64,000 nucleotides of DNA from Squalus acanthias (taxonomy: Eukaryota), in assembly GCA_030390025.1 (NCBI GenBank), contig JASTWF010000034.1, positions 5,270,001 through 5,334,000 on the forward strand, read 5' to 3'. Numbering within the stretch: position 1 is the first letter of the stretch; each line of letters begins with the position of its first letter. Shown here piece after piece: positions 21,335 through 62,365 of the stretch. The notes under the pieces are model-generated. The model ran no database searches, was not told the origin of the DNA, and was given only the letters and a program-made list of their open reading frames with translations. Both the position numbers and the translations under genes were made by a program.

Positions 21335-21465
21335 AATGAAAGGTCTACGACCTGAAACGTTAACTCTCTTTCTCTCTCCACAGATGCTGCCTGACCTGCT
21401 GAGTATTTCCAGCATTTTCTGTTTTTACTTCAAATTTCCAGCATCCACAGTATTTTGCTTTTTGC
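21335..21465 (+). mobile_element. Penelope 3'-end fragment
   Basis: AGGTCTACGACCTGAAACGTTAACTC...CAGTATTTTGC. Confidence 0.78.
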
Positions 21466-21509
21466 GCCTGCCTGGAATTATTTGATCAGACAGTATTGAG
21501 GGAGCTTTA

Positions 21510-26806: not shown

Positions 26807-28777
26807 CGGGAGAGTTCAAAAGCAGCGGGTGCAGAGCGAGAGCGCCAAAACCCGGGAGAGTTCCAACCCTGGGTGCAGAACGAGAGCGCCAAAACCCGGG
26901 AGATTTCAAACCCCGGGAACAGAGCGAGAGCGCCAAAACCCGGGAGAGTTCAAAATCAGCGGGAGCAGAGCGAGAGCGCCAAATCCCGGGAGAGTTCAAA
27001 CCGCGGGAACAGAGCGAGAGAGTCAAAACCCAGGAGAGTCCAAACCGTGGGAACAGAGCGAGAGAGCCAAAACCCGAGAGAGTTCAAACCGCGGGAACAG
27101 AGCGAGAGAGTCAAAACCCGGGAGAGTCCAAACCGCGGGAACAGAGCGAGGGAGCCAAAACCCGGGAGAGTTCAAACCGCGGGAACAGAGCGAGAGCTTC
27201 AAAACCCGGGAGAGTTCAAACCGCGGGAACAGAGCGAGAGCGCCAAAATCCGGGAGAGTTCAAACCCCGGGAACAGAGCGAGAGCGTCGAAACTCGGGAG
27301 AGTTCAAACCCCGGGAACAGAGCGAGAGCGTCAAAACCCGGGAGAGTTCAAAACCCGGGAACAGAGCAAGAGCGTCAAAACCCGGGAGAGTTCAAACCCC
27401 GGGAACAGAGCGAGAGCGTCAAAACCCGAGAGAGTTCAAACCCTGGGAGCAGAGCGAAAGCGCCAAAACCCGGGAGAGTTCAAACCCCGGGAACAGAGGC
27501 AGAACGTCAAAACCCGGGAGAGTTCAAACCCCGGGAACAGAGCGAGAGCGCCAAAACCCGGGAGAGTTCAAACCCCGGGAACAGAGCGAGAGCGCCAAAA
27601 CCCGGGAGAGTTCAAAACCCGGGAGAGTTCAAAACCCGGGAACAGAGTGAGAGCGCCAAAACCCGGGAGTGTTCAAACCCCGGGAACAGAGCGAGAGCGC
27701 CAAAACCCGGGAGTGTTCAAACCCCGGGAACAGAGCGAGAGCGCCAAAACCCGGGAGATTTCAAACCCCGGGAAAAGAGCGAGAGCGTCAAAACCCGGGA
27801 GAGTTCAAACCGCGGGAACAGAGCGAGAGAGTCAAAACCCAGGAGAGTCCAAACCGTGGGAACAGAGCGAGAGAGCCAAAACCCGAGAGAGTTCAAACCG
27901 CGGGAACAGAGCAAGAGAGTCAAAACCCGGGAGAGTCCAAACCACGGGAACAGAGCGAGGGAGCCAAAACCCGGGAGAGTTCAAACCGCGGGAACAGAGC
28001 GAGAGCTTCAAAACCCGGGAGAGTTCAAACCGCGGGAACAGAGCGAGAGCGCCAAAATCCGGGAGAGTTCAAACCCCGGGAACGGAGCGAGAGCGTCAAA
28101 ACCCGGGAGAGTTCAAACCCCGGGAACAGAGCGAGAGCGTCAAAACCCGGGAGAGTTCAAACCCCGGGAACAGAGCGAGAGCGCCAAAACCCGGGAGAGT
28201 TCAAAACCCGGGAGAGTTCAAAACCCAGGAACAGAGCGAGAGCGCCAAAACCCGGGAGTGTTCAAAACCCGGGAACAGAGCGAGAGCGCCAAAACCTGGA
28301 GGAGTTCAAAACCCGGGAACAGAGCGAGAGCGCCAAAACCGGGGAGAGTTCAAAACCCGGGAACAGAGCGAGAGCGCCAAAACCTGGGAGAGTTCAAAAC
28401 CCGGGAACAGAGCGAGAGCGCCAAAACCTAGGAGAGTTCAAACCCCGGGAGCAGAGCGAGAGCGCCAAAATCCGGGAGAGTTCAGAACCCGGGAACAGAG
28501 CGAGAGCGACAAAACCCGGGAGTGTTCAAAACCCGGGAACAGAGCGAGAGCGCCAAAACCTGGAGGAGTTCAAAACCCGGGAACAGAGCGAGAGCGCCAA
28601 AACCGGGGAGAGTTCAAAACCCGGGAACAGAGCGAGAGCGCCAAAACCTGGGAGAGTTCAAAACCCGGGAACAGAGCGAGAGCGCCAAAACCCGGGAGAG
28701 TTCAAAACCCGGGTATAGAGCGAGAGCGACAAAACCCGGGAGAGTTCAAAACCCGGGAGAGTTCAAAACCCGGGAGA
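26807..28777 (+). repeat. 44-bp tandem array (GGGAGAGTTCAAACCCCGGGAACAGAGCGAGAGCGCCAAAACCC), about 45 units
   Basis: Direct periodicity; T-poor plus strand explains the long spurious ORFs. Confidence 0.95.
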
Positions 28778-39710: not shown

Positions 39711-41121
39711 ATATATTTTTCTTGATTGAAAAGTACCCTGAAGTATTTCAGCCTGACTGTTTAAAATAACAACAATAAATCACATTTTTGTGATATGTTT
39801 TATATCTTAAGTATAGGGCTCCGAATTTGTTGGCTTTATCTAGATTCTATGAAAGTACCAATCTCATTCACAGGTCGGCTCTTGAGAGCGTCGATTAGTT
39901 CTGGAGGCCACACCAATGACTCATTCCTGCAGCACCAAGCATAAATACACTAGACCAGAATGAGAGGCCATTTTGTAACAGGCATTCGCTGGAAATTCGC
40001 AAACAAGCATATTTTAAATTTAAATGTAAATTTGAGGGTTTTTGTTTTTGGAAGACGGGGGCAATATATATTTAAGGTTTTCGGAATCTGAAGTTGTGTT
40101 AAGAGACATTAGCAAAGCCCTAAAAAGGAACCCGTTATCATCCACGCACGTTTAAGTGGCGGATTGATCCAGTATTATCACACGTTCAGTGTAATTGGGT
40201 CATATGTTTAAATCTGCTTTTATTCCTTAAAACAATAAGGCATCAGCCGTTTAAAAAAATATATTAAATTAACCATGTGCATTGCAGAGCACCTGGTGAG
40301 TGAGCATTGAAATATTTTGTGGTCACAGAAACCAAATTTTGAAATATTGGCTATATTTTTGGTGGTTGGAGAGAAAAAGGCAAAAAAAGGCATCAAATTA
40401 AAGCTGTTTATTTTGATGCTGATCAAAATAACTAGCCTGTTGCCGGGTTTGGGTTGCGGTGAAAAGACGTGGCCCTCTTCCCCTGGCCAAGCTTACCCCC
40501 CCCCCCCCCCGCCCCTCCCAACCCCACAAACACAAACATCGGGGTTTAAATCTCACCGCCAACGCTGGGATGTGGGCCCGAGACACAGGCAGAGATAAAG
40601 TCTTCCAGTGGGCAGGGCTTCGGGGGTGTGGGGGGAAAATGGAGGCCCAGGAGCCCTCGATCAACAGCAGTGTCCCCAGGGCTCGGCTCACCCACAAACT
40701 CGCGGAGGCCCGGCGTGTGAGGTAGTTTTAATAAAAAATCAAAAACGGAATAGATCAACAGAAAGGACTGTGTGGAAATAGCTTTACTCTGTATCTAAAC
40801 CGTGATATGTCTGCTCTGTAAGTGTTTGATGAGGCGGTGTTGAGGGATCTCTATTTTGATCGAACCGGAGCTGTAGCTACCCTGGGAGCTTTTACTCGGG
40901 CAGTGTAGAGGGAAATTTACTCTGTATATGTGCCGTGCTGTACCTGTCCTGTCAGGGTTTGATGGAACAGTGCAAAAGGGAACTTTAATCTGTATCTAAC
41001 CCGTGCTGTACCTGCCCTGGGAGTGTTTATGGGACAGTGTAGAGATAGCTTTAATCTGTATCTAACCCGTGCTGTACCTGTCCTGGGAGTGTTTGATGGG
41101 ACAGTGTAGAGGCAGCTTTAG

Positions 41122-42770
41122 TCTTGGAGCAACTTCTTCTGTCAAAGCTGCAATGAGACTTGAGATTTTTAGTGATATTTTCACAATAAATAAATACTAA
41201 AAATACATTTTCCCTCTAATTGCTGATATGATTTTGGAAGGAACTGTAGCAAAAGTCAATTTCCCCTCACCTAAACAAGTTTCAAACAGGTCTTGAAGTC
41301 CAAATATTTTTAAAGAGGGTCTGAACTGCTTAAAACTGTTTTAAAATTTAAATTTCTCAATATTTGATTTTGAGTGATCGAGTGAAGTGAGTAGCTTTAC
41401 ACAAACATGCAACCATGGTGTTGAGGAGGGGGAGGGCAGGGAAGGGTTTGTAGGAGTTACATATTATTTTTTAATGACATTTAAAAAAATTACCATTAAG
41501 ACATTTAGGAGGAGAACCAAAAAAGGGGAAAAACACAAACCATTTCATTTTGTCTGTCGTTCTATAGTCCAAACAATAATGTAAATATAGATTTCCTCTT
41601 AAGCATTTATTGGAGTGTTTATAGAAACAAGAGATATGTGATGATGTATAAGAATTCACGATATTTGAGTGTTTAAAATTGACTGGGATATTGATACAGA
41701 GAATGTTTCAGACATTCCTGCATTGCGGAACGGTGTGAGCTCTTTGCATTAGCAGGAAATGGGATTGTTGAAAGGAGATGCGGATTTTGTTTGTTTGAAT
41801 AGGGTGAGAATCAGATCGTGTCTGACTAACTTCAAACTCTTCAAACACATGAAGGAACTAGAGATGGGGGCAATACACAAACCTGAGACCCCAGACAAGG
41901 GCCGAAGGAAGGTTTGTTCACAGATTAACCATTCTCCAGGCTGATAGTTTCGGGGTGATGTCATTCTGGAGGCCTGGGCAAACAATACAGAAAACACGAG
42001 TTCAAATCCCTCCCTGGGCTGTTGTGAATTTGAATTCTGTTCTTTTGAAATAAAATAAATCTGGAATAAGAAAACTTCCAAAACAGGATGACTCACTCCC
42101 GCCTGGTCCTGTGCAGCCGAGTGTGCCGGACAGCACAAGGCGGGAGTGAATTGTTGCCTTTTACCCGCTGTGTGTACTGTATAAAGATACAGATTAAAGC
42201 GTGTATATTTTGCTGTTTGTGTGTGTGTGTATATATTGGAGATGGATTTTGGATATATTTTAAGATGGAGATCTAAAGATAAAAATAAGGAGCGTTTAAA
42301 ATCGGGGTTGTTAATAGAAACAAGATTTATGTAATGAAGTATAAGAATTGCAGGAACCTACTTTAGAAGAAGCCACTCTTTGTTAATTGAGAAAGACACA
42401 GAAAATACGTTGATTAAACTGATAACGTACAATTCAATTGGGATTGAATGATTGAAATAGGAGATTAAAAATTGAGTGAACAATGAAGTTTGTTTGTTTG
42501 TTTCCCGATTTTCGTGGGGAAGAACCTAAAATAATTCAACGCTTTTCATGATAAGAGCAGGGATTAATATTTTGGAGAATGTCTGAGAGAAAAACATTAG
42601 AAGCGAAATAGGTAAATTATTAATCTTTAATTTAACATATGAATAAACATCTCCAAGTCAGTCTGACTGGTTCCGCTGTCCAGGAAGAAAGACAGATGAT
42701 TATTTCTGTTCAGTCATAGATTTTCCTGCTTTGTGTTTATAATTAAGTGACGCAAATTTTGTTTATATTT
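41122..42770 (+). repeat. Third partial copy of the duplicated AT-rich segment, with a ~650-bp insertion
   Basis: CTTGGAGCAACTTCTTCTGTCAAAGCTGCAA matches 51945 onward; insertion at about 41660-42310. Confidence 0.85.
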
Positions 42771-43729
42771 GTGAATTGTAAATTAACAACAATCAGTCAC
42801 ATTTCTGTGACAATTTTTACGTCTTAAAAGATTGCATTTGTGGCTCAGAATCAGTATGATAGCTTTGCAGAGGCAGGAAATGGCATTGTAGATTGGAGGT
42901 GCAGTTTTTTCCCAGGGCAGCACCCTGGCCAGGGACATGCTTTTCCTGATCTGCTGCATCCTGTGTAGATCAGAAACAAGTTAAGGTATTCATATTAATC
43001 GCCCCAAGACAATGAAATGGGTAAACAATGTCTGATCAACGCCAGAGACTTCCAGCAGGAGATGGTGGAATATATAAAACCCAAGGTTCCCAGACCAGAT
43101 GAGGCAGCAGGTGTTGGCACACATTATAGTTCTGCATCTCTTGTGTCTTTGGAGCAGGTTCAGTTTAACTTTAAAATGACTCTCTCAAATAATAGGCCTG
43201 AGAGAGATCCTGACAGAAATTAAGAACAGACATTCTGAGAGTTTCAAAGAAAGAGGTGTAGAGATTTCAAGAAATACAAAATTATAAAGTAATAAAGGAA
43301 AGGTACAGAGAGATATAGAAATATAAAGCGAGATCGATATACAGAGAGACACATAGAGAGAGAGATGTACAGAGATATAAAGGAAACTGTAGAAATACAG
43401 AGCTATAATGAAAAACATTAGAGATACAGGACACCAGTCTTCGTACAATCTGCACGTGTGCCCCACTGGTCTCAGAATGTAACCCAGGGACCCTCACGGC
43501 CTGTCTCTCCAAATCTAAGTAAAACATCTTTCATTCTCTTATTTCATCACTCCCAAATTCCCAGCGAACCAGTGAGAGAAACTGAGGACAAGAAAGCAGA
43601 TAGTAAGAAATACAAAGAGTGCGATCAAGAAAAGAAGTAGAAAGAGTTATGGAGAGATTAAGGTGCAGAAAGAAATTAAAGGAGAGATGGATGTTTAGGT
43701 AAAGAGAAAGATGGAGAACTAAATATAAA

Positions 43730-44715: not shown

Positions 44716-46440
44716 ATGGAAAACATCCTTAAACCATCGCGTCTTGACTTGGACCCAAACACCCGAGCAGCCGGTAAGGTGTGGAAACACTGGTATCGCA
44801 CGTTTGACAATTTTCTTGAATATTGTAAGGTAGATGATGACTCAAAGTTGCGGATACTCATCAACAGTGTCACCCCGAATGTATTTCAGTATGTGGAGGA
44901 ATGGGGCAGTTACGAGGAGGCAATTCGGTCGCTTAAGAGACTATATACTAAGACACCGAATGAGGTCTATGCCAGACATCTACTAGCTACAGCCCAAAAA
45001 GGGCCGGAGGAATCCATTGATAAATTCCTCCAAGAGCTTCGCAGACTTAGTATGGACTGTAACTTTCAGGCGGCCTCAGCTGAGCTGTACCGTGAAGAAA
45101 TGATCCGTGATGCTTTCATCTGCGGGCTTGCCTCCCCATTTATACGCCAGCGTCTACTGGAAAGTAAGACACTTGAGCTTCAGCGAGCTTATGACATGGT
45201 TTGCTCTCTAGATCTGGCGAAAAGAAATGCAGACCTTTATACAGTGCCCAGACCTCGGTCTACTGCCTTAACTACAGTCAGACAATTTAAGAGGCCACAA
45301 GTGAACTCTATTAGGGAGGTCTTTATCCCTGACGATCAATCTGATGACTTCACTGATGAAGAGGATGATTACCCCACTGTGGCAGCCTCTTGGCAATCTA
45401 AGAAATGCTTCTTTTGTGGTGATGAGTTTCACCCTCGGAAATTCTGCCCTGCTCGCAATGCATTTTGCAATCATTGCAATAAAAAGGGTCATTTTGCAAA
45501 GGTTTGCCTATCAAGAGCCTCTACGAGGGCTTATCAAGCTAAGTCCTACCGAACTGCCCCGGTAAGGTCCTATCAAGATGTTCCGGCTAAAATCTATCGT
45601 GCTTCCTCTTGGGTTTCCTCTCGAAGAAACACACCTAGAGTTTCAGCCACTCTTTGTGCAACGACACCAATTACAGCTGCTTGTCCTCAGAACATATTCC
45701 ATGCAGCTACAAAAGCATCAATTAATGGACATACTTTAGATGCCTTAATTGACTCAGGTAGCACTGATAGTTTCATTAGGGAACAGATTGTTGCAGAGTT
45801 AAAGCTACATGTTTTCCCATCGGACCAGGCAATTGCGATGGCTCAGTCATCACTTAATACCAGAATTTCTAGCTTTTGTATGTTTGAAATAACACTTAAT
45901 GGTCACAGGTATGCCTCCACCCGGCTTTCGGTGCTCAAGGACTTATGTAGTGATCTTATCTTAGGGCTGGATTTTCAAAAGCAGCATAAGAAGCTCACCA
46001 TTGAGTTCGGCGGATCCAAACCTGAACTCACTATTTCTAATATACTACCTCGATTACCGTTCTGTGCATTGTCAGCAGCTTCACTGGATGAACCCTCACT
46101 GTTTACCAGTATCCCTCCTCGATGCAAACCGATTATAACAAAGTCACGACGTTTCAGTCAGGAAGACCAGTCTTTTATTGCGGCTGAGATTTCTCGGCTT
46201 TTAGCAAAAGATATCATCGAGCCTTGTTCGTCGCCATGGCGCGCCCAGGTCGTTATTTTTAAGAACCCTCTACAACCTCACAAGAAACGGCTGTGCATTG
46301 ACTATTCACAGACCATCAATCAATATACGGACTTGGACGCATACTCATTGCCGCGCATCGATGATATGGTTAATAAACTGGCTGAGTACACGGTGTTCTC
46401 AACATATGATCTGAAAAGTGCCTATCATCAGGTACCTTGA
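44716..46440 (+). CDS. Gypsy gag-protease-RT N-terminal part (frameshifted polyprotein)
   Basis: Two zinc knuckles (CFFC..H...C and CNHC...GH....C); protease LIDSGS; RT motifs SPW and DLKSAYHQ. Confidence 0.92.
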   Translation: MENILKPSRLDLDPNTRAAGKVWKHWYRTFDNFLEYCKVDDDSKLRILINSVTPNVFQYVEEWGSYEEAIRSLKRLYTKTPNEVYARHLLATAQKGPEESIDKFLQELRRLSMDCNFQAASAELYREEMIRDAFICGLASPFIRQRLLESKTLELQRAYDMVCSLDLAKRNADLYTVPRPRSTALTTVRQFKRPQVNSIREVFIPDDQSDDFTDEEDDYPTVAASWQSKKCFFCGDEFHPRKFCPARNAFCNHCNKKGHFAKVCLSRASTRAYQAKSYRTAPVRSYQDVPAKIYRASSWVSSRRNTPRVSATLCATTPITAACPQNIFHAATKASINGHTLDALIDSGSTDSFIREQIVAELKLHVFPSDQAIAMAQSSLNTRISSFCMFEITLNGHRYASTRLSVLKDLCSDLILGLDFQKQHKKLTIEFGGSKPELTISNILPRLPFCALSAASLDEPSLFTSIPPRCKPIITKSRRFSQEDQSFIAAEISRLLAKDIIEPCSSPWRAQVVIFKNPLQPHKKRLCIDYSQTINQYTDLDAYSLPRIDDMVNKLAEYTVFSTYDLKSAYHQVP

Positions 46441-48671
46441 AGGTCTCAGACAAGCAGTATACGGCCTTTGAAGCCAATGGACGGCTGTATCAATTTCGTC
46501 GCCTCCCCTTTGGGGTCACTAATGGAGTGGCTGTCTTCCAGCGAGCAATGGATGACCTGGTCAAACAGGAAGACTTGAAGGATACGTTTCCTTATCTGGA
46601 CAATATTACTGTCGCAGGTCGCAATCAGCGGGAACATGACGCCAATCTCCAACGATTTTGGGATGCACTCCAGCACCGTTATTTGACATTAAATGCGGCT
46701 AAATCCATTGAGTCACAACCAACCATCAACATCCTTGGCTATTGTGTGGGCAATGGCATCATTAAACCTGACCCTGAAAGGCTTCGCCCACTCCAAGAAC
46801 TCCCGCCACCTAAGAATCCGGCCTCCTTGCGCCGGGCCCTCGGCCTGTTTGCATACTATGCTAAATGGATTCCTAACTTCTCGGACCGAATCCAACCTCT
46901 ACTGAAGGCCAGCACATTCCCACTAGACACAGCGGCTGTTGCAGCCTTTAACCTCCTGAAAAAACAGTTGGAGAAAGCGACTCTTCACTCCATCGATGAA
47001 AGTCTTCCTTTTGTTGTTGAGTGTGATGCCTCGGAGGTGGCGATCTCGGCCACTCTGAATCAGGAAGGTCGTCCGGTGGCATTTTTGTCCAGGACTTTTC
47101 AAGGGGCTGAGCTACATTATCCTCCAGTCGAGAAAGAAGCTACAGCCATCATAGAGGCAGTACGGAAGTGGAGTCATCTCCTAGCTCGCCAGCACTTTAC
47201 CTTAATCACGGACCAGCGATCGGTCGCCTTCATGCTCGATAATCGAAAACGGACCAAAATTAAAAATAATAAAATCCAGCTTTGGCGGCTGGAATTGGCC
47301 TCTTTTGGTTACACCATCCACTATCGACCTGGCAAGGAGAATGTGGCTCCGGATACCCTCACACGAGCATTCTGCTCCGCCATGGCACCCTCTACGCTCG
47401 TAGACATCCATGATGGTTTGTGTCATCCGGGCGTTACTCGCATGCTACACTTCGTGCGGTCCCGAAATCTCCCATTCTCTACCGGGGATGTAAAGAAGAT
47501 GTGCTCGGACTGCAGAGTCTGTGCGGAATTGAAACCTCAGTTTTTCCGCCCCTCGGGTCGTATACTCATACATGCGACCCAGCCAATGCAACGGCTTAGC
47601 ATCGATTTTATTGGGCCGTTGCCCTCTTCAACTCGCAACACTTATCTATTGACCATGGTCGATGAGTATTCCCGTTTTCCGTTTGCCTTTCCCTGCCCCA
47701 ATATGCTGACGACCACGGTTATCAGCTGCCTTGAGCAGGTATTTGCTTTCTGTGGCATGGCATCCTATGTTCATTCGGATCGGGGCCCTTCTTTTATGTC
47801 AGGAGAACTCAAGGCCTATCTCTCGGAACGGGGTATTGCTGCCAACAAAACAACGCCTTATCATCCGGTCGGGAATGGGCAAGTCGAGCGTTATAACGCT
47901 ATCATCTGGAATGCGGTACGTCTGGCTTTGAGATCTCGGGGCCTACCCAACCAGCAATGGGAAGCAGTACTTCCAGACGCATTACACTCCACACGGTCCC
48001 TCCTTTCGACTGCCACAAATACGATGCCTCATGAACGGTTCTTCCGATTTCAGCGTCGCTCATCCTATGGGATATCTCTCCCGTCGTGGCTGACTGCACC
48101 GGGACCAGTGCTACTCCGAAGATATGTCCGGGCGTCTAAGAATGACCCCCTGGTAGATGAGGTTGAGCTCACTGACGTCAACCCTACCTACGCCTATATT
48201 CGATATCCTGACGGTCGGGAATCTACCGTGTCATTGCGGGATCTGGCTCCCTGCCCGCCAAAACATAGAGGGACATCAGGGGATGATATTGTACCAGGCA
48301 CATCTCTGGGCTCGCCAGGTGCCTCTCATCACGATCTGGATCTGACGCCGGCTGGTACCTCACTCCAGCGTGCCGACCTGGGGCAGACTGACTATGAGCC
48401 CGTCGGGGCTCGCACGCGCAGCCACGATCCACCCTGTACCGTACGCTCGGAAACGGATCTGCCACAGCCCTGCCCGACACCCGTTCGGGCACCAGTACAC
48501 AGTCAGGATCGTCCTGACCCCTCACAGAGCGGGCTGGATCACTCGGACTCTGGTCTACGGCCCGCGGCGGGTAAACGGGCTAGGGGCCCTCTACCGCTAC
48601 GAGAACACAAACGGGTGCGGCTCTCCCTCGTCCAGCGGCTACGAAATGGAGGGAGCATCCCGGCCTCCTAA
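46437..48671 (+). CDS. Gypsy RT-RNase H-integrase part
   Basis: LPFG, YLDN, CDAS/EKEA/TDQ, HHCC zinc finger and the D-D-E triad (IDF, SDRG, VER). Confidence 0.93.
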   Translation: MKVSDKQYTAFEANGRLYQFRRLPFGVTNGVAVFQRAMDDLVKQEDLKDTFPYLDNITVAGRNQREHDANLQRFWDALQHRYLTLNAAKSIESQPTINILGYCVGNGIIKPDPERLRPLQELPPPKNPASLRRALGLFAYYAKWIPNFSDRIQPLLKASTFPLDTAAVAAFNLLKKQLEKATLHSIDESLPFVVECDASEVAISATLNQEGRPVAFLSRTFQGAELHYPPVEKEATAIIEAVRKWSHLLARQHFTLITDQRSVAFMLDNRKRTKIKNNKIQLWRLELASFGYTIHYRPGKENVAPDTLTRAFCSAMAPSTLVDIHDGLCHPGVTRMLHFVRSRNLPFSTGDVKKMCSDCRVCAELKPQFFRPSGRILIHATQPMQRLSIDFIGPLPSSTRNTYLLTMVDEYSRFPFAFPCPNMLTTTVISCLEQVFAFCGMASYVHSDRGPSFMSGELKAYLSERGIAANKTTPYHPVGNGQVERYNAIIWNAVRLALRSRGLPNQQWEAVLPDALHSTRSLLSTATNTMPHERFFRFQRRSSYGISLPSWLTAPGPVLLRRYVRASKNDPLVDEVELTDVNPTYAYIRYPDGRESTVSLRDLAPCPPKHRGTSGDDIVPGTSLGSPGASHHDLDLTPAGTSLQRADLGQTDYEPVGARTRSHDPPCTVRSETDLPQPCPTPVRAPVHSQDRPDPSQSGLDHSDSGLRPAAGKRARGPLPLREHKRVRLSLVQRLRNGGSIPAS

Positions 48672-49591
48672 TCTTTTGGGGGGGGGGGGAGAATGTGGTA
48701 ACACAATACAGCTTCCTGTGACTCGAACTTTATTGCATCACTTCCTGTGATTAGTCCAAGATAAATACTGGACTGATCAGTTGGATCCTGGAGAGGCATA
48801 GAGTAAGACCTCTTTTGTATGTAGCACCTTTTTAGTTGATTAAAGCTTACTTTAAGTTCACCACGCGTAAGGCTCATTCTTACGACACAGTCTGTGTCTC
48901 TGCTAGTGTGGAGTCGGACTCTGTAACAAGTGTCCCTGTGATTAGTGTGTGTCTCTCCCAGCGTGGAGTCGGACACTGTAACAAGTGTCCCTGTGTACAG
49001 TCTGTGTCTCTGCTGTTGTGGAGTCGGACTCTGTAACAAGAGTACCTGTGTACAGTGTGTGTCTCTGCTGATGTGGAGTCAGACTCTGTAACAAGTGTCC
49101 CTGTGTACAGTCTGTGTCTCTGCTGGTGTGGAGTCGGACTCTGTAACAAATGTTCCTGTGATCAGTGTGTGTCTCACCCAGTGAGGAGTCTGATTCTGTA
49201 ACAAGTATGCCTGTGTTCAGTGTTTGTCTCTGCTGGTGTGGAGTCGGACTCTGTAACAAGTGTGACTGTATACAGTGTGTGTCTCTGCTGGTGTGGAGTC
49301 GGAGTCTGTAACAAGTGTCCCTGTGTACAGTCTGTGTCTCTGCTGATGTGGAGTCGGACTCTGTAACAAGTGTCCCTGTGTACAGTCTGTGTCTCTGCTG
49401 ATGTGGTGTCGGACACTGTAACAAGTGTCCCTGTGTACAGTCTGTGTCTCTGCTGGTGTGGAGTCGGACTCTGTAGCAAGTGTCCCTGTGATCAGTGTGT
49501 GTCTCTCGCAGTGTGGAGTCGGACTCTGTAACAAGTATGCCTGCGTTCAGTGTGTGTCTCTCCCAGTTTGGAGTCGGACTCTGTAATAAGT

Positions 49592-50844: not shown

Positions 50845-53800
50845 CATTTTGCAGCACCTGTTAGTTATGGGTAAATCTCCCTCTACACTGTACCTTTAGA
50901 TTCTCCCAAGGCAAGTACAGCACGAGTTATGATCCCACTACCCAATCCCACCAAACACACCCAGGGCAGGTACAGCACAGACCTTCCCTTTTGTTCTTTT
51001 CTCCCATCCCCCCTTTCCCTGCCTCTGTACTTGCTTAAAATCTGGTAAATCTGTAACATTTTCCAGTTCTGATGAAAGGGCATCGACCTGAAACATTAAC
51101 TCTGTTTCTTTCTCCACAGATGCTGCCTGACCTGCTGAGCAATGTTCCCTGTAAGCTGTGTGAGTGGGCGGCGATCTGTAAGGTCCCACGCACTGAAATT
51201 CACAGGCGGCACAGTGAGCTGGAGCGGGCGGAGTGTCCCAATGCCCAATGACCGGGAATCCTCACAGACCCGTTTGTGAACTCACAGAGCCGATCCGAAT
51301 TGCAACAACATTTGCTGAGATACAGAGCCCTGGCACCCGGCGAGCGTTGTCTCGAGATTCATTCAGTCCCTTTTCCATGGAGACGCGCATAGTCCGTATC
51401 CGGGTGACTGAGCGGCGGCCGCACTTTGGAACAACACAGGTGGAGGTGCAGCGCGTATACAATGGTACAAGGACCGCTGGAAGGAGGCGAAAACAAACAT
51501 TTATTAGCCCCACGGTGAAACAAAGATATGAGAATTTGATTTTTGGATAATTCAGAAAATTGTTTATAGGCGGAAAAAGATATGGGAAAGTGATAATGAA
51601 TGTTTCGTGGTACGTTCCAGTTCAATTTAGCCAGGACTCGTCCCATTTTTGAAATAGTTTATCAGGGTTATTTAAATCATGTTGCGAGCGGGGTGAAAAA
51701 GTTTGTGCCCCCGTTTGTACCTCAGAGTCTGAGAGACGGAGGGAACGGCAGCAGAAAAACAGGAAACAACATCTCCAGAAACTGATCGCAACTCATCGCC
51801 AAGGCTGGGGAGAGATAACCTCACCGCCGTCTTAGGAAGTTTAACCACTATATTCACTTTCTGATTTGAGCTCCGTTTGGAACTAGATTTGTTTTATTAT
51901 ATTTTGTCGTATGTTTAACGACAGTATTGAAGGGGGAAAGAGAAACTTGGAGCAATTTCTTTTGTCAAAGCTGCAACGAGACTTGAAAGAATTTAAAGAT
52001 TTTCAATGAGCTTGTCACACAAAATGAGTGTTAAAAACACTTTTTCCCCCTAGGTTTCGAATATGATTTCGGAAGAGACTGAAACAAAAGTCAATTTCCC
52101 CGCTCATCTAAACAAGTTTCAGCCACGGCTTGAAGTCCAGACGCTTTTAAAGAGGTTCTGAAATGCTTAAAATGTTTTAAATTTGAAATTTCTCAAGATC
52201 TGATTTTGAGTGATCGATGAAGTGATTAGCTTTACACACACATGCAACCGTGGTGTTGAAGAGGGGGAGGCAAGGGGATGATTTGTAGGAGTTAAATATT
52301 ACTTTTTAATGACTTTTTAAAAATATACCATTTCGGCATTTAGGAAGAGAACCAAAAAAGGGGAAAAACACAAACCATATTATTTTATCTGTCGTTCTAT
52401 AGTCCGAACAAATCGCAGGAATAATGTAAATATGGATTTGCTGTTCAATATTTAGTGCAGTGTTAATAGAAACAAGAGTTATGTAATGATGTATAAAAAT
52501 TGCAGGAAACTACTTCAGAAGAAACCACTCTCTGTTTATTGAGAAAGACACAGAACATACTTTGATTAAACTGATAAATTACAATTCGATTTGGTTTGAA
52601 TGTTTGAAATAGAAGATTAAACATTGACAGTACAATGAAGTTTGTTTCCTGCTTTTAATTGCGAAGTACCTAAAATAATTCAACAATTTTCGTGATAAGA
52701 GCAGGGATTAATATTGTGGAGAATGTTTGAGAGAAAAACATTTGAAGCAAAATTGGTAAATTATAAATCTTTACGTCAACATATGAGTAAACATTTCCAA
52801 GTTAGTCTGGCTGGTTCTCCTGTCCAGGAAGAAAGACACATTCTGTTAAATCACAGCTTTTCCTGCGTTTTGTTTCTAATTCAGTGACGCAATTTGTGTA
52901 TGTGTTTTTCTACACTTGTGAATACGTGCTGCATTTCTGACATGTTAAATGGATGGTGTGCTGGTTCAAGAAGACCACCTTTATTCATGGAAATGACTGA
53001 AGTTGAAAATACGGATACACATTTTGTTCAGTTCTTTTTAATACTGCGAATTAAAGAACTACAGCACTTTATATTTGTTGATTGTCTGGTTGCATTGTGA
53101 TTAATATTCTATTAACTTACGTGGACGTAATATGTGGATGGAAAATAACGCGGAGAAATCTGAAGTTATCCACTATGGTAGGAAAAATAGAACAGCAGAG
53201 TATCTTTCAAATGGTGCGAGATTGGCAAATGTTGGTGTTCAGAGGGATTTGGGTGTCCTTGTAGAAAAATCACGGAACGTTAACCTACAGGTACAGCAAG
53301 CAATTAGGAAAGCAAATGATATGTTGGCCTTCATTAGAAGAGGATTTCAGTATAAAAGTAAAGACATCTTATTGCAATTATATCGGGCCCTGGTGAGACC
53401 ACGCCTGGTGTATTGAGTACAGTTTTGGTCTCCTTACCTATGGAGGGATATACTTGTCAAAGTGGGAGTGCAACAAAGGTTCACCAGACTGGTTCCTGGG
53501 ATGGGGGGATTTTCCTATGAGGAGTGATTGTGTAGACTATGCCTATATACTCTAGAGTTCAAAAGAATGAGAGAGATCACATTGAAACATGCACATTTTT
53601 TTATAGGGCATGACAGGATAGATGCAGGGAGGATGTTTCCCCTGGTTGGGGAGTCCAGAACCATGGGTCACAGTCTCAGAATAAGGGTTCGGCCATGTAG
53701 GACTGAGATGAGGAGAAATTTCTTCACTCAGTGGGTGGTGAATCTTTGGAATTCTCTAGCTCAGAGGGTTATGGAGACTCAGTCGTTGAGTATAATCAAG

Positions 53801-54376
53801 ACAGAGGTCGATAGATTTAAGAATATTGAGGGAATGAAGGGAAATGGGGATAGTGCGGGAATGTGGAGATGAGCTAGAAGATTAGCTATGATCATATTGA
53901 ATGGCGGAGCAGGCTCGAAGGGCCAAATGGCCTACTCCTGCTCCTATTTCTTATGTTCTTATGTGCTTAAAGCTCACTCAATACTGTCCCATCAAACAAT
54001 TCCAGGCAGTCGCACAAAAGCAAAATACTGCGGATGCTGGAAATCTGAAGTAAAACAGAAAATGCTCGAAATACTCAGCAGGTCAGGAGCATTTGTGGAG
54101 AGAAGAACAGAGTTAACGTTTCAGGTCATAGACATTTCATTGGAACAGGCAGGTACACTTGGATTCGATACAGAGTAATGCTCCACTCACCTCATTTTAA
54201 CACTCTGATATACCCCACGCCATTCACTTTAACAAAGTGATATACCCCTCAGTTTAATCCTCTCTTACATATCCCAAACCTCTCACTGTAACAGACCGAT
54301 ATACCCCGCTCACCTCACCTTAATACTCTGATATACTCGACACCCCTCAATGTAACACTCTGACATAACCCGCACC
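50845..54376 (+). repeat. Segmental duplication, copy B (satellite, Penelope end, unique 1.9 kb, CR1 53125-53965, Penelope 54012-54150, 32-bp satellite)
   Basis: Mirror image of 21200-24350. Confidence 0.9.
51233..51835 (+). pseudogene. Possible degenerate intronless TIMP/NTR-like coding relic
   Basis: One frame with two internal stops (51548, 51650); IVRIRV..QVEVQRVYNG..LFIGGKRYGKVIMNVSWYVP..NSLSGLFKSCCE..KVCAPVC loosely follows TIMP N-domain order; judged by eye only. Confidence 0.3.
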
Positions 54377-55134
54377 TGTAGGATAGGGTGTATTTGAATG
54401 ATTTAGTAAACATTTTTGTCTAACTATAATATGTGAAATTTTCTGTTAAAAGCTTTAAAGCCTGTATAAAATGGCGAATGGCTGAGAGAGAAGCAGGATG
54501 GGAAATTGTGCTAACCTGACTGAAACTCGCTCTGTTTGCAATTACTGAAGTAATGGAATGTAATGCTAAGTTGATGGAGACTATCAGGGAGGTGGTATTT
54601 AGTAATGTGATAGAAAAGAGATGAGAGTTGGAGAAGAGAGAGAGATAAGTGAAGCACCTCTCAGTGATAACTACTATAAAATGGACAAATTGTTTAGACA
54701 ACATCTTGGGAAATAGTTTTTGGAAAGAGAATATCTAAAGTTAAAAGGGCCCTTTGAAATGCACAAAGCGAGTCCGAGTGGGATCAACAAGGTCATAAAA
54801 CATGTATTGGTGTCAGATAGCTGTTTGCAGTCACGTAGGAAGAGGGAAAAAAGGTGAATAAAGATACGGATTTTGAACACTGAAGGCAGCGCGAACCAGA
54901 GGTGAAGGAGTTTCAGTCGAGAGAAAACAGCAAGAGAAGAAAGAGACAGTCACTCGGAAGGAACGCCGAGGCTCAAACGAACAAGACTGTGACTATCTCC
55001 TTGTTAAGTATTAACTTCTTTGTACTGGATGTTTAATGCTTAATAAACCTGGTTTACTGATACACAATGTACCTGTACCCAGAGTGGTTTGTGTAGTCAC
55101 GGACAAATTATTATAAGAGCTTTTGGAAGCTACA
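54377..55134 (+). promoter_or_regulatory. ERV 5' LTR (758 bp)
   Basis: 5-bp terminal inverted repeats; TATAAAA at 54675; AATAAA at 55042; last ~53 bp repeated at 61950-62002. Confidence 0.87.
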
Positions 55135-55137
55135 ATT

Positions 55138-55155
55138 TGGCGTCCAACGTGAGGC
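55138..55155 (+). other. Primer binding site, tRNA-Lys1,2 type
   Basis: TGGCGTCCAACGTGAGGC versus canonical TGGCGCCCAACGTGGGGC (16/18), 3 nt after the LTR end. Confidence 0.88.
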
Positions 55156-55371
55156 TGTGACTATTAACTGAAACCAGGTCTATTGTGCATAAAGCAGCCG
55201 TTTGCATTTTCCCTTGGATTTTCGTCTGACCAACGAGGATCCTCGTGGAAAGTTAGGTTTTCTAACAGATAGTGTCTCTTTAACGCACAAAAGAATGTCG
55301 AGTGAGTATTTTCTTGTAGATTATAAAGCGAAGTTTATTTAGAAGTGCGATGAGGCACAGTTACAAATGTT

Positions 55372-56975
55372 AGTAGAATGGGCCCTTGCAATCAGAATCA
55401 GGGAAATTTATAATGGGGAACAAAGAAATGGTAAACCAATTAAATACATACTTTGGTTCTGTCTTCACAAAGGAAGACACAAATTTCCTCCCAGAGATGT
55501 CGTGGAACATAGGGTCTAATGAGAGGGAGGAACATAGAAACATAGAAACATAGAAGATAGGAGCAGGACTAGGCCATTCGGCCCCTCTAGCCTGCTCCGC
55601 CATTCAATGTGATCATGGCTGATCATCCAAATTCAGAACCCTGTCCCTGCTTTCTCCCCATATCCCTTGATCCCTTTAGCCTTATGAAATATATCCAACT
55701 CCTTCTTGAATATATTTAATGAATTGGCCTCTACTGCCTTCTGTGGTAGAGAATTCCACAGGTTCGCCACTCTGGGTGAAGAAATTCCTCCTCATTTCTG
55801 TCCTAAATGTCTTACCCCTTATCCTTAGACAGTGACCCCTGGTTCTGGACTCCCCGAACATCGGGATCATCCTTCCTGCATTTAGTCTGTCCAGTCCTTT
55901 CAGAATTTTATAAGTTTCAATGAGATCCCCTGTCATTCTGCTAAACTCCAGCGAGTATAAACCCAATCGATCCAATCTCTCCTCATGCGTCATTCCTGCC
56001 ATCCCAGGTATCAGCCTGGTGAATCTTCGCTGCACTCCCTCCATGGCAAGAACCTCCTTCCTCAGATAAGGCGACCAAAACTGCACACAATACTCAAGAT
56101 GTGGTCTCACCAAGGCCCTGTAAAACTGCAGCAAGACATCCTTGTTCCTGTACTCAAACCCTCTCGCTACGAAGGCCAACACACCATTTGCCTTCTTAAC
56201 CACCTTCTGCACCTGCATGCTTACCTTCACCGACTGGTGCACAAGGACACCCAGGTCTCGTTGCACTTCCCCTTCTCCCAATCTATTGCCATTCAGATAA
56301 TAACCTGCCTTCCAGTGTTTGATACCAAAGTGGATAACCTCGCATTTATCCGCGTTATATTGCATCTGCCATGCTTCTGCCCAGTCACCCAACCTGGCCA
56401 AATCATCCTGGAGTTTCTCGGCATCCTCCTCACAGCACACACGCCCACCCAGCTTTGTGTCATCTGAGAACTTGGAGATATTACATCTAGTTCCCTTGTC
56501 TAGATCATTAATATATATTGTGAATAGCTGGGATCCAAGGACCAATCCCTGCGGTACCCCACTAGTCACTTCCTGCCACGTGGAAAAATACCCATTTATT
56601 CCAACTCTTTGCTTTCTGTCTGCCAACCAGTTATCTATCCAAGTCAATACCTTGCCCCCAATCCCATGTGCCTTAACTTTACACGCTAATCTCTTATGCG
56701 GAACCTTATCGAAAGCCTTTTGAAAGTCCAAATACACCACATCCACTGGTTCTCCCTTAACTATTTTACGAGTTACATCCTCAAAAAATTCCAGTTGATT
56801 ACCCAAGCACGATGTACCTTTTGTAAATCCATGTTGACTTTGTCCGATCCTGTCACAGTTTTCCAATTGCTCTGCTATTACATCTTGTATAATGGACTCT
56901 AGCATTTTCCCCAGTACCGATGTCAGGCTTACTGGTCTGTAATTCTCCGTTTTCTCTCTACCACCTTTTTTGAAC
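55372..56975 (-). mobile_element. CR1 insertions inside the ERV (plus fragment 55372-55530; minus RT half 55531-56975)
   Basis: ORF 55682-57070 carries CR1 RT motifs; (CATAGAAA)n tail. Confidence 0.9.
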
Positions 56976-58320
56976 ATGATGCAGAGATGCCGGTGTTGGA
57001 CTGGGGTGGACAAAAGTAGGAAGTCGCACAACACCAGGTTATAGTCCAACAGCTTTATTTGAAATAACAAGCTTTCGGAGCGGCTGCTCCTTCGTCAGGT
57101 GAAGTGAAGAAATACAAATGGGCACAGCATATATCGACAGAGAACAATGCCTGTGCAGAGAACAATGCCAGACGACTACAGTTAATCTTTCTAACTGCCC
57201 TTTATCACACCTCGGCAGAGAGACAATCACGGCAATCAAATCCAACCAGGTCAGTCAGGAAGACATTACATCAAAGACGATAGCAAAATACAACAAAGAC
57301 AATGAGGTGGGGTCACAAGGGGTCTAATGTGGCAGTCTGTATGGAAAACCAAATACTTTAAACTTTTTACTTTTTTTACTGGAAATCACATCTGTGAACA
57401 AGCCAACGATGACTCGAGTCTGGATGAGTCTACGTTAGGTGGGGTTACATGTAGCGTGACATGAACCCAAGATCCCGGTTAAGGCCGTCCTCATGGGTGC
57501 TTAACTTGGCTATCAGTTTCTGCTCGATGATTTTGCGTTGTAGTGTGTCTCGAAGGCCGCCTTGGAGAACGCTTACCCGAAGATCCGAGACTGAATGGCC
57601 TTGACTGCTGAAGTGTTCCCCGACTGGAAGGTAACACTCCTGCCTGGCGATTGTTGTGCGTGTCCATTCATACGTTGTCGCTGTGTCTGCATGATCTCGC
57701 CGATGTGCCATGCTCCGGGGCATCCTTTCCTGCAACGTATGAGGTAGACAACGTTGGCTGAGTCACATGTGTATGTACCATGTACCTGGTGGGTAGTGTC
57801 CTCACGTGTGATGATGGTATCTGTGTTGATGATCTGGCATGTCTTGCAGAGGTTGCCGTGGCAGGGTTGTGTGGTGTCGTGGTCGCTGTTCTCCTGAAAG
57901 CTGGGGAATTTGCTGCGAACGATGGTACTTTTGAGGTTAGGCGGCTGTTTGAAGGCGAGTAGTGGAGGCGTGGGGATGGCCTTAGCAAGGTGCTCATCGT
58001 CATCGATGATATGTTGAAGGCTGCGAAGAACATGGTGTAGTTTCTCCGCTCCGGGGAAGTACTGGACGACGTAGGGTACTCTGTTGGTTGTGTCCCGTGT
58101 TCGTCTTCTGAGGAGGTCTATGCGATCTTTCGCTGTGGCCCGTCGGAACTGTCGATCGACGAATCGAGCGTCATATCCCGTTCTTACGAGGCACCTGAAC
58201 GGACACCGCGCAGCAATCGCCAGGCAGGACTGTTACCTCCCAGTCGGGGAACACATCAGCAGTCAAGAACATTCAGCCTCGGATCTTCGGGTAAGCATTC
58301 TCCTAGGCTGCCTCACGTAT
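56976..58320 (-). mobile_element. Penelope-like element (GIY-YIG remnants, hammerhead-bearing 3' end, short inverted 5' piece)
   Basis: LPVGEHFSSQGHS..DLRVSVLQGG..EQKLIAKL..HEDGLNRD; hammerhead at 57066-57102; plus-strand inverted duplicate at 58190-58320. Confidence 0.88.
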
Positions 58321-58329
58321 ACTACGAGG

Positions 58330-60035
58330 GGTGGAGAGTACATTCACAGCGTGTGAACGTCATCTGTTGGCCACATTTTGGGCAGTCAATCATTTCACCT
58401 ACATTACCGGACTGCAGAAGGTCATCTTGCATTCCCCACACACGCCCCTTAATCTGCTGTTAAAACCAAGTGAGACCAAGGTATCCTCTCAGCGAATAAG
58501 TAAATGGACACTAGAATTCTTACACTGTGACCTGAACATTACGCCTCAACGAGCCACGCTGTGACCACTTATGCTCGCCTATGAGGGAAGCCCACACCAG
58601 TGTCCATTACCAGTGCTAGATATGGAACCAAATCCAGTAAAGGCTAACGCCATACCCGGAGCTCGAAATGTGTACCTTGACGGGTCATCATACTGTGTAG
58701 ATGGCCATCCTAGAACTGGATGTGCCCTTATTGATATCGACGCTCCCGATTGGTCAGAGGGATTTCACGTTCTCGTCCACTCCTCACAACAGGCAGAACT
58801 GATTGCAGTAATTCTAGCCGTACATTACACGGCTATGGATGAAACAAATATCTGGTCCGACAGCAGTTACGTTTGTAATACAGTTATGGCTCTTCCCCTC
58901 TATAATACCAATGAGTTTTGCTCATCAGAACATAAATCTTTATTACATTGTGGTCTCCTCCGTAAGCTATGGAAAGTGCTCCAGGAACGAGTCGCCCCTT
59001 GTCACGTGTGTAAGGTAGCAGCCCATCAGAAAGATTGATCCCCCCATTCGCGAGGTAACCAAATGGCCGATCGCTTTGCTAAGCAGGCGGCCGAGAACGG
59101 AAAGTTACTACCTTGGTGGGTGATTAATAATACTCAGACACCCGTAGTGGGGTCGGTGACTAAGACTAAAACCATTGATCTTTTGGCCCTATAGGATTCA
59201 TATGCTCCTTATGCACAGGTACTAGCCTGGCATCAACAGGGATGCCCGGTACCAGCACCCACCCTATGGGCTGACTCCACTGTAATGCAACAAGATGTAG
59301 ATAAAAACCCTCCCCTACTAATGATCCGGAATAAAGAGGCTGACCTAGTAGTTTGTATTCCTCCTCATTTAAAGGAAGACATTCTAGCTCTCTTTCATTC
59401 ATTTCCCGGGGGCAGTTTTCACAACTCTGCAAGAAATGTTACAGATAAAACATAAATTGCACCTTGCGCAACATCCACAATCATCAGGGATTGTGGAGAG
59501 GGGAAATCGAACTTGAAAGACAATGTTGCAGAAGTTGTGTACAGATCACCCCACTCAGTGGACTGACATGTTGCCTTTATGTCTAATGGCAATACGATCT
59601 ACCCCACACGGGACTACGAGGGTAAGTCCATATGAGGCTATGACTGGGAGGCAAATGCGGATACCAGGACATGCAATATATGGAAATAACACACCATTAA
59701 AACTACAACCATGTAGCCAAAAATGGTTACAAACCTTGATAGATCATATGGACGAGGTGAGCAAGCTGGTGGTCATTAACATAGGCAAATCGCGTGAACA
59801 AATCAAGCGATATTATAAGAGAGTAAAACCATTTGAGTATGATGTTGGAGACCGAGTAATGTCACACAATTTATCTCCAAAAAATCACTCATTCGAGATA
59901 AAATGGATGGGCCCTCATACCATAGTAGATAAATTAAATCCAGCTGTGTATCTACTGAATGTCCCATATGATCCGAAGGGAGAACCTAAACTGAAATGGT
60001 TCCATATCAATCAGATGAAAACTGTTAAGAATTAA
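58330..60035 (+). pseudogene. pol: ERV pol remnant: tether (degenerate RNase H), second RNase H, integrase with GPY/F module
   Basis: FTACERHLLATFWAV; YLDGSS..SQQAEL..WSDSSY..KVAAH..RGNQMAD; IPPHLKEDILALFH; HPQSSGIVERGN; W..MLP..IRSTPH..SPYE; KWMGPH; WFHINQMK. Confidence 0.88.
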
Positions 60036-60068
60036 GATGTTACATTTTGGTTTACCCACAGGTTAAAG

Positions 60069-61950
60069 ATGTGGCTCTGTAGTCTGATACTGATAATTGG
60101 ATGTGCAGTGAGCTCTCCGGAGGTAACAAAAACTTTTGACATTAGCATTAACATCTGTACACTGGACGAAGGAGGCGAATGTGCCCTACTCTCCATCTAT
60201 GGAACAGAACCTCGAATTGTTGGCTGACATAAACAATCAAAGAACCATAACGGATCATCCGAGACGTATGAGGAAGGATGTTCTTGCCACGGAGGGAGTG
60301 CAGCGAAGATTCACCAGGCTGATACCTGGGATGGCAGGAATGACGTATGAGGAGAGATTGGTTCGATTGGGCTTATACTCGCTGGAGTTTAAAAGAATGA
60401 GAGGGGATCTCATTGAAATTTACAAAATTCTAACAAGATTAGACAGACTAGATGCAGGGAGGATGTTCCCGATGGCCGTGGAGTCCAGAACCACGGGTCA
60501 CAGTCTAAGGATAAGGGGTAAGCCATTTAGGACTGAGATGAGGAGGAATTTCTTCATCCAGAGAGTGATGAACCTGTGGAATTCTCTTCCACAGAAGGCA
60601 GTAGAGGCCAATTCATTAAATATATTCAAGAAGGAGTTAGATATATTTCTTAAAGCTAAAGGGATCAAGGGATATGGGGAGAAGGCAGGGACAGGGTACT
60701 GAATTTGGATGATCAGCCATGATCTCATTGAATGGCGGAGCAGGCTCGAGGGGCTGAATGGCCTGCTCCTGCTCCTATCTTCTATGTTTCTATGTTTCTA
60801 TGAGGGGGATGTTCCAGTTTGGATCAGAAATAGTACAAAAGATAATATAACAACACCATACGGAGCGGGTTGTGGTACTTTACAAGAAAAGGTGTATAAT
60901 TGGGAAATAAAAGAAGGATATGGTGTGTGTATCAGGTGCGGGATAAGGAACAGGAAAGGCCCAAATGTGTGGAAATTCCTGAAGAAAAAGAATGGAATCT
61001 GGGAACAGGTACAAGAATCAAATTAGGGACCAGTAGCTCCGGAAAGTAAGAGATATATACAATTAGGCTGGCCTCGGTGGTGGAAGAAAGTACCGGCCAG
61101 TATTCTTGTATTGGGTCGAATATTGTAATGGGCTTTAAAAATCAGGATGATGATTGACCTCCTATTCCGAATATGATGCAAAGATTACCTCAGCAGGATA
61201 TGAGATTCCCAGAGACGATATAGAGATCAGCGCAGCAGAAAATAAACCCTTTATGATAACCTTTATACGTAGGGGAAACTATAGGGATTTTGGGAATAAA
61301 GGTGACAGCATAACATAATTCAAAAATGGGATAACTGGATGTGTAAGAGAAGATGGGTATGTCTATAGTGTTAAGCTCACACCCTATGAGAAAGTAATAT
61401 TAAGAACCACGAGAGGGTGTACCGGAGGAACAATGTCCCCAACTAACACCGGGACCTGGGAACGGTCTAGTAATTAAACCCACTTATAAACCAGTGTTTC
61501 ATCAAGTAATACCAGAAGTGGCCCCTGTTACCTAAATTTAACAGAACTAATACTACCAAAGTGGTGCCCTGACAAAACAGCACAACTAACTCAGAGAATG
61601 CTGCAGCAAGTTTTTAATCAGTACTGGGAAAATGCGACCTTATCTATAAGCAAAGAGAAAACAGAACGGACCTCCCGTCACGAGTTTAGTAGCACCAAAG
61701 AAAGCAGCCAGGGAAAGAGTAGACAGAAAGAGGATTGATAAACGATGGACTCACAGGTTTCAAGACAGTAACATCGGTAATTAACTCAATGGATTCCGCA
61801 GATTTACAAATACAATTACAAACGGTGAGGGAAAAGTTGAGGGAGATACTTAGTAGGGAAAACAACATAGTAAGCGAGGAGCTAAGGGAGGATCAGGTAA
61901 TGACCATACACCTGCGGGACATCATACATGAAATAGAGGATCATGCCATG
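60069..61950 (+). pseudogene. env: ERV env remnant (signal peptide, ectodomain, furin site, fusion-peptide/heptad region; 3' part deleted)
   Basis: Acceptor TTTACCCACAG at 60051-60061; MWLCSLILIIGCAVSS; frame continues across the CR1 insertion; KSRQK(R)/GLINDGLTGFKTVTSVINSMD..LQIQLQTVREKLREIL. Confidence 0.75.
60268..60802 (+). mobile_element. 5'-truncated CR1 inserted in env
   Basis: CR1 C-terminus and (TTCTATGT)n tail; TATGAG on both sides. Confidence 0.9.
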
Positions 61951-62004
61951 AGTAGTTTGAGAAGTCACGGAACAATTATTATAAGAGCTTTTGGAAGCTA
62001 CACA

Positions 62005-62365
62005 TCACAGGCCGGGAATGGAGTGTGAATTCCCCCTTCTTTATGTATGGTTCAGTACCACACCTAATGAGAACTGACACACCACAGGCCGGGAATGGAG
62101 CCTGGGTAATTCCTTCCTTCTCTGTAATGGTTCAGTACCTCACCGACTGTGAACAACTGACACATCACAGACCAGGAGTGCAGCCTGGGCTCTCCCTTCT
62201 CTGTGTGTGGGCCACAGTACCTCTTTGACTGTGTACAACTGACATACCACAGCCCGGGAATGGAGCCTGAGCCCTTCCTTCGCTGTGTGTGGGCCATAGT
62301 ACCTCTTTGACTGTGAACAACTGACATACCACAGCCCGGAAATGGAGCCTGAGCCCTCCCTTCTG
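62005..62365 (+). repeat. ~82-bp tandem repeat, about 4.3 copies
   Basis: CACAGSCCGGGAATGGAGCCTG recurs near 62006, 62082, 62165, 62248 and 62330. Confidence 0.8.

Follow-up and report, generated by a model that had tools for sequence, protein, structure and literature searches.

A frameshifted env fragment in a decayed provirus of Squalus acanthias, probably derived from an F-type retroviral fusion protein

Retroviruses whose envelope protein (Env) is built on an F-like scaffold include the lokiretroviruses and the foamy viruses. In lokiretroviruses, a PGP motif stands straight after the signal peptide and the F2 segment is ~90 residues long (PMC7947760); 16 of the 23 Env entries of that study, compared by eye, follow an RxKR site with F-[LI]-[GA]-x-[LI], the lamprey and frog forms differing. 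The F scaffold takes up binding modules either N-terminally, as in coronavirus spike, or before the cleavage site, as in foamy Env (PMC11468914). The primer-binding site of foamy-type loci has been assigned to tRNA-Lys (PMC5512871). For snakehead retrovirus (SnRV), an infectious clone exists and the genome is 10,688 nt (PMC12193657); CmiERV lineage I of the elephant shark clusters with it, so that SnRV-clade endogenous retroviruses (ERVs) are already known from a cartilaginous fish (Han 2015, PMC4422223). In the open-licence literature searched, no paper describes F-type Envs for ERVs that are SnRV-like or come from sharks; bioRxiv supplements may list some. On how retroviral Env arose, Wang and Han (2020) set out four scenarios without deciding among them (PMC7947760). 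Here, we analyse a window of 64,000 nt from Squalus acanthias (contig JASTWF010000034.1), in which a first-pass annotation had compared positions 61440–61950 to the Env of lokiretroviruses. We find that the motifs quoted there lie in the env gene of a decayed provirus. We hold with good confidence that 61440–61950 is the frameshifted, truncated middle of this env, and that its ancestor was an F-type (class Ib) Env of a basal lineage probably nearest to the SnRV clade.

The provirus runs from a 5′ LTR to a short remnant of the 3′ LTR (Table 1). It is interrupted by a LINE, presumably CR1-like, and by a second retroelement, presumably Penelope-like as judged by eye. Its primer-binding site is of the tRNA-Lys type, which is not unique to foamy viruses. 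No gag, protease or reverse transcriptase (RT) of the provirus was found, and at the integrase gap a tblastn alignment with the Xenopus tropicalis Pol P0001 skips from residue 850 to residue 977. A short open frame on the forward strand between the two insertions (57103–57327, MGTAYIDREQCLCREQCQ...) may be a remnant of a leader or of the start of gag. At the other end, a deletion appears to have taken the anchor together with the greater part of both F1 and the 3′ LTR; the match of one related contig ends at 61948, next to the env/LTR junction. The flanks are two different satellites (54183–54376 and 62000–62364, with 32-bp and 82-bp units) and no exact target-site duplication flanking the provirus was found, which together hint at rearrangement. 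Dating by LTR divergence was dropped, as the 3′ LTR offers a comparison of 53 nt only. Having lost gag, RT, the membrane anchor and the bulk of F1, this copy is unable to make an anchored fusogen; dead and fragmentary, it represents its kind poorly.

Table 1 Parts of the provirus and the elements inserted in it
Feature	Positions	Strand	Evidence or remark
5′ LTR, TG...CA, 758 nt	54377..55134	+	AATAAA at 55042; last 53 nt recur at 61950-62002
Primer-binding site	55138..55155	+	16/18 bases as in the site of 14/15 foamy-type reference loci
LINE insertion, approximate limits	55361..56974	-	Self-BLAST to many copies in the window; RT-like ORF
Second inserted retroelement	57450..58313	-	ORFs, self-BLAST; Pol relatives match the provirus from 58310 on only
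pol tether (degenerate RNase H)	58328..58561	+	PF17917, E 7.4e-10; 55/77 identical to P0001
pol RNase H	58660..59100	+	PF00075, E 2.4e-16
Linker and integrase	59105..60032	+	~125 core codons missing near 59410
env start: signal-peptide-like hydrophobic stretch and first 66 codons	60069..60266	+	One stop
CR1-like 3′ fragment inside env	60267..60798	+	Private to this copy; skipped by contigs in 4/4 runs
env N-terminal module before the F core	60799..61433	+	Broken reading frame, with stops and shifts near 61090, 61165 and 61397
F2-like segment (C-P..GPGNG, LNLTE, WCP, helix)	61434..61723	+	Frame change near 61530; BLASTP to P0006
Basic cleavage-site region	61718..61731	+	Frame change inside; R-x-R-R here in P0005-P0008
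Putative fusion peptide and first heptad region	61732..61949	+	72 codons, then cut off
Last 53 nt of 3′ LTR, joined to env	61950..62002	+	48/53 identical to 55082-55134

Elsewhere, the window contains a Ty3/Gypsy-type LTR retrotransposon on the forward strand (45300–48100; motifs of protease, RT and integrase besides two CCHC motifs), two inverted 2.6-kb repeats (51781–54363 and 21111–23678, 84.6% identical, with partial copies near 41100–42800) and, in a LINE-dense region, long minisatellite arrays at 14471–15221, 25372–28758 and 48887–49591 (27, 26/44 and 55-bp units).

The first-pass annotation had quoted a series of env motifs broken by a frameshift at the cleavage site, and all of them are present. 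LNLTELILPKWCP begins at 61532 and its frame continues to GKSRQK; GLINDGLTGFKTVTSVINSMD, followed by LQIQLQTVREKLREIL, begins at 61732 in another frame, which holds GLINDGLTG...NSMD and the heptad. The switch falls at ~61724–61731, with basic residues on either side, and is the real lesion that had been proposed, because related contigs in three of the four compared runs lack it. Many related contigs likewise lack the frame changes that env shows near 61090, 61165, 61397 and 61530. The four runs compared were taken from 20 runs containing parts of 58320–62002 (10 studies; nine organism labels plus two unlabelled rows); among the 20, half the words of that interval were present in one only, and runs with small shares were left out. 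All four compared runs cover all 30 bins, and the provirus thus belongs to a multi-copy family. One run (X15), guessed to be RNA, was discounted as evidence of expression. Across all six frames of the window, [RK]G[LIV][IV]N has a single match, which, together with the six viral relatives described below, argues that the motif stretch is not a product of chance. The F2-like part starts at C-P..G-P-G-N-G (61434–61466), upstream of the second frame change (~61530). Past the break, env continues for 72 codons and stops at ~61949, in agreement with the truncated TM first described; the tail of the ORF from 61950 on is read-through into the LTR and does not belong to env. The heptad-like helix is there in a modest form, with hydrophobic residues at six of ten a/d positions in the best register, and the hydrophobicity of the putative fusion peptide is low (mean 0.52; 0.22–0.70 in the relatives).

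An exhaustive search of 1.84 billion proteins returned seven matches to the motif stretch. Six are from cartilaginous fish (catshark, skate, two from sawshark and two from whale shark), with E values between 4.5e-15 and 3.9e-5, which by itself points to a host among the cartilaginous fish; the seventh, a giant-virus repeat protein (P0009), was dropped as a repeat artefact. Four of the six (P0005–P0008) keep R-x-R-R where the window copy is broken, followed by G-[LVT]-[VI]-N in three and R-V-I-N in one. The homology extends upstream: env pieces before the break match the skate protein P0006 by BLASTP (E 1e-8 and 1e-11), and env read with an X at each break is identical to P0006 at 100/260 positions and to P0008 at 77/190. 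From GPG to the cleavage site there are ~93 codons in the window, 87 residues in P0006, 85 in P0008, 101 in SnRV and, counted by eye, about 92 in Loki-Bsp. P0008 and P0010 are chimeric gene models, and only their homologous parts were used; in the public models, Env pieces are fused with a Niban-like protein of the host in sawshark and with parts of pol in whale shark, which are likely annotation chimeras. P0006 itself comprises an N-terminal module, F2, the heptad and a C-terminal hydrophobic, anchor-like stretch, with most of F1 absent, and is either an internally deleted copy or a spliced gene model. One alignment (A3) was left out, short N-terminal pieces being misplaced in it. No relatives came up when viral and metagenome contigs were scanned for related loci, and a word search with RNase H gave no matches.

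The F core of the window env is contiguous with an N-terminal module. This module adds ~260 residues ahead of the core, so that GPG lies at residue 283 of the X-read env, as against 236 in P0006, and the N-terminal parts of the two proteins are homologous (score 70, 0/2000 shuffles). By eye, the Cys, Trp and G-x-Y-x-C spacing in the window module is Ig-like, and P0006 has D-x-G-x-Y-x-C; both motifs are reminiscent of the F strand of immunoglobulins. Database searches returned no match supporting an Ig fold for the window module or P0006. The SnRV env (L001:6131-9535) contains neither an immunosuppressive domain (ISD) nor CX6CC, has a weakly Ig-like N terminus (E 0.03–0.06: V-set 0.06, contactin-3 0.03, perlecan 0.04) and enters an F-like core at about residue 516; its N-terminal part is not significantly like those of the window family (229 and 235 of 1000 shuffles). 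From its position, the predicted N-terminal module would be the part that binds the cell.

Placement of the virus rests on Pol. The nearest Pols are P0001 of X. tropicalis and P0002 of Callorhinchus milii; two proteins that we call loki-type by eye, from motifs in the supplement of PMC7947760 (P0003 and P0004), are more distant. In integrase, the window is identical to P0001 at 111/196 positions, to P0002 at 96/196 and to the loki-type pair at 81/195 and 79/195, and is nearer to the latter (41–42%) than to SnRV (46/145); in the tether, the loki-type proteins reach 27/70 and 28/61. Trees built from nine of 37 Pol ORFs, with reference labels assigned by motif, join the window with P0001 (and P0002) at supports of 80/93 and 86/94, neither of them starred, and keep this group separate from the loki pair and the foamy rows. 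In tether/RNase H plus integrase, the window lies outside P0003+P0004 (99/99, 98/98) in both trees, two rows being all that represent the loki type. As the window lacks RT, its RT placement is by proxy through P0001, which is identical to SnRV at 122/258 positions, to the loki type at 112/248 and to foamy viruses at 96–102/253–255, the reference locus L001 being taken as SnRV from its RT row by eye. An RT+tether tree unites P0001, the loki type and SnRV at 96/96 and leaves the branching among them unsettled; it is unrooted and has no good outgroup, the Gypsy outgroup of a first RT tree having been badly translated (branch 7.4) and left out. A grouping of P0001 with SnRV is neither rejected (p-AU 0.55) nor supported by this tree. 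These data indicate a likely lineage with members in X. tropicalis and C. milii, close to but apart from the lokiretroviruses; it is probably, as we judge with moderate confidence, a separate basal lineage related to SnRV.

The same data speak to the loki label of the first-pass annotation. That the provirus is a true lokiretrovirus, one of a divergent branch in Chondrichthyes in which an N-terminal module was added to Env, would fit its dual RNase H, its VYLDGSSY motif, which resembles loki VYVDGCSF, and a loki-like integrase C terminus. To our knowledge, however, the combination of tether and RNase H is common to all retroviruses, and its presence here therefore does not discriminate for lokiretroviruses. 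By eye, loki Env and the F1 of the relative P0007 also have landmarks in common (DL-x-x-G-x-x-P-S-[WY], P-[VI]-x-V-D and G-x-I-L-x-x-P, as well as YR/YK, L-x-x-C, CP and CG), and the best RT+tether tree joins P0001 with P0003, at a support of 52/7. Against this, the proxy carries LPQG in its RT where the loki type has [CL]PFG, its protease region is short and that of the loki type long, both trees set the window apart from the loki pair, the fusion peptide and N terminus differ, and the lokiretrovirus screen gives three genomes of Chondrichthyes with none positive, in PDF columns that may be off (PMC7947760). The combination of R-x-K-R with G..G..V-NSMD, which had been read as a loki signature, fails as such: NSMD occurs, by eye, in none of 16 of the 23 loki Env entries. 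With Pol outside the two loki-type proteins and ~260 residues between the signal peptide and PGP, loki membership is unlikely, and the provirus is very probably not a lokiretrovirus. As a statement of membership the label is thus likely wrong; as a statement that the protein works like a loki Env it is fair.

Less likely still is that the provirus belongs to the foamy-like ERVs of the CmiFLERV/XtrFLERV group and that the window env is the undetected env of that group. The nearest Pols do come from the same two hosts, only pol has been found for XtrFLERV and CmiFLERV (PMC5512871), the primer site is foamy-like and foamy Env is likewise F-like (PMC11468914). However, a grouping of P0001 with the foamy RTs is rejected (p-AU 0.018; four mammalian-type foamy rows, fish FLERVs being absent from the tree), the RT identity of the proxy to foamy viruses is lower, and the foamy receptor-binding domain stands just before the cleavage site whereas the additional part here precedes the F core. 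Motifs of P0001 are absent from either supplement searched, which decides the identity with XtrFLERV neither way.

The window's own env piece matches no fusion protein in Pfam, the PDB, the Atlas or a word-indexed search, and the fusion-protein type was judged on its relatives. P0007, with the longest F1, runs 289 residues past the cleavage site and another relative 155. The top Atlas feature clusters of P0007 are Baculo_F/Gypsy env (0.95) and, at 0.92, Fusion_gly (a family present on 47% of the cluster members), and the top five of its structure neighbours are all envelope or F clusters (TM 0.57 with F0); all these rows lie below the service's naming bar, and the underlying model has a pLDDT of 0.56. 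Paramyxo/pneumovirus F (PF00523), baculovirus F (PF12259) and errantivirus Env (PF07253) are thus feature and structure neighbours of P0007, but none gives a Pfam match at E<=10, and the relatives have no Pfam match to Foamy_virus_ENV. AlphaFold models of P0007 (four-row alignment, pLDDT 40.5) and P0006 (single sequence, 32.7) were unusable; Foldseek with the former gave no match at E<=0.001, and PDB searches with P0007, alignment A4, P0006, the window N-terminal piece and the SnRV core returned nothing relevant. Among 16 reference gamma/delta Envs, the distance from cleavage is 64–70 residues to the start of the ISD and 80–86 to that of CX6CC. The reported absence of both motifs extends to all six relatives, including those running 155 and 289 residues past the site, and the window itself reaches the position of the ISD only, not that of CX6CC. 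A relation to the F proteins of Mononegavirales, which the first-pass annotation cited as reported for lokiretrovirus Env, is therefore supported indirectly, through the intact relatives, of which P0007 falls near F and envelope clusters, and not through the window's own piece. With one source of evidence joined by landmarks read by eye, we consider it highly likely that this env encoded an F-type fusion protein. That the Env is instead gamma-type or unrelated, with no more than an F-like look to its basic site and helix, would suit the frequency of gamma-type Envs in cartilaginous fish (bioRxiv 2021.11.23.469661), the missing direct F match of the window piece and the unusable AlphaFold models, but is very unlikely given the long relatives without ISD or CX6CC, z values of at most 2.4 against all 15 ISD-bearing reference Envs and the Atlas features and structures that point to F families.

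On the F-type reading, the ancestral stretch 61440–61950 would have encoded an F2-like segment and, after a cleavage site likely of the furin type, a predicted fusion peptide with the first heptad behind it. The ancestral Env, led by a signal peptide, would have formed a trimer cleaved at the basic site, and its N-terminal module may have bound the cell. By analogy with paramyxovirus F and foamy Env, in which this mechanism is established, the heptad would then refold to a coiled coil, inserting the fusion peptide. More tentatively, a retrovirus lineage widespread in cartilaginous fish, shared with Xenopus and placed between lokiretroviruses and SnRV, might carry an F-type Env with an Ig-like front module, with SnRV possessing the same type of Env. 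If so, the layout would resemble that of coronavirus spike, with an Ig-like binding module ahead of the F core, and F-type Env would span the loki, foamy and SnRV-like branches, making it the likely ancestral retroviral envelope, which gamma/beta-type Env would have replaced later. An F-type Env with a front module in a third deep branch would bear directly on the question of where retroviral Env came from, and SnRV may then have an F-type Env of solvable structure.

The element can be compared with three known groups. With lokiretroviruses it shares an F-related Env with a PGP motif, a ~90-residue F2 and an RxK/RR site, besides dual RNase H and a loki-like integrase; the cleavage site agrees with the loki RxKR pattern through the relatives and is broken in this copy. 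It differs in its separate pol branch, in a fusion peptide unlike the long apolar one of lokiretroviruses, in the distance from cleavage to N-[SA] (17 residues, as against ~23 in loki Envs by eye; PMC7947760) and in its front module, which the loki Envs compared lack. With foamy viruses and FLERVs it has in common an F-like Env scaffold with a binding module of its own, here a predicted one, and the same type of primer site (PMC11468914, PMC5512871); the foamy module lies just before the cleavage site, that of the window ahead of the whole F core, and a grouping of the proxy RT with foamy RTs is rejected. SnRV differs from the window family in its integrase, in its primer site and in the N-terminal part of Env, which has roughly double the length and contains additional basic sites. 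Among 32 reference Envs, a set in which foamy ORFs are cut at the locus end and no loki Env is included, SnRV Env ranks first for three of four queries (z 9.5, 5.7 and 4.5; P0007 z 0.1). The similarity is statistically weak: its alignment to the family profile spans the full length at an hhalign E of 0.11–0.12, and its HMM score is reached by 3/300 shuffles. Like the window family, SnRV Env has a long N-terminal part followed by a collinear core of C-P..G-P, basic site and heptad, and, like the relatives, it has no ISD or CX6CC; a Y-x-C-M-W motif found twice in SnRV Env also occurs in skate P0006, and SnRV has the RT nearest to that of the proxy Pol P0001.
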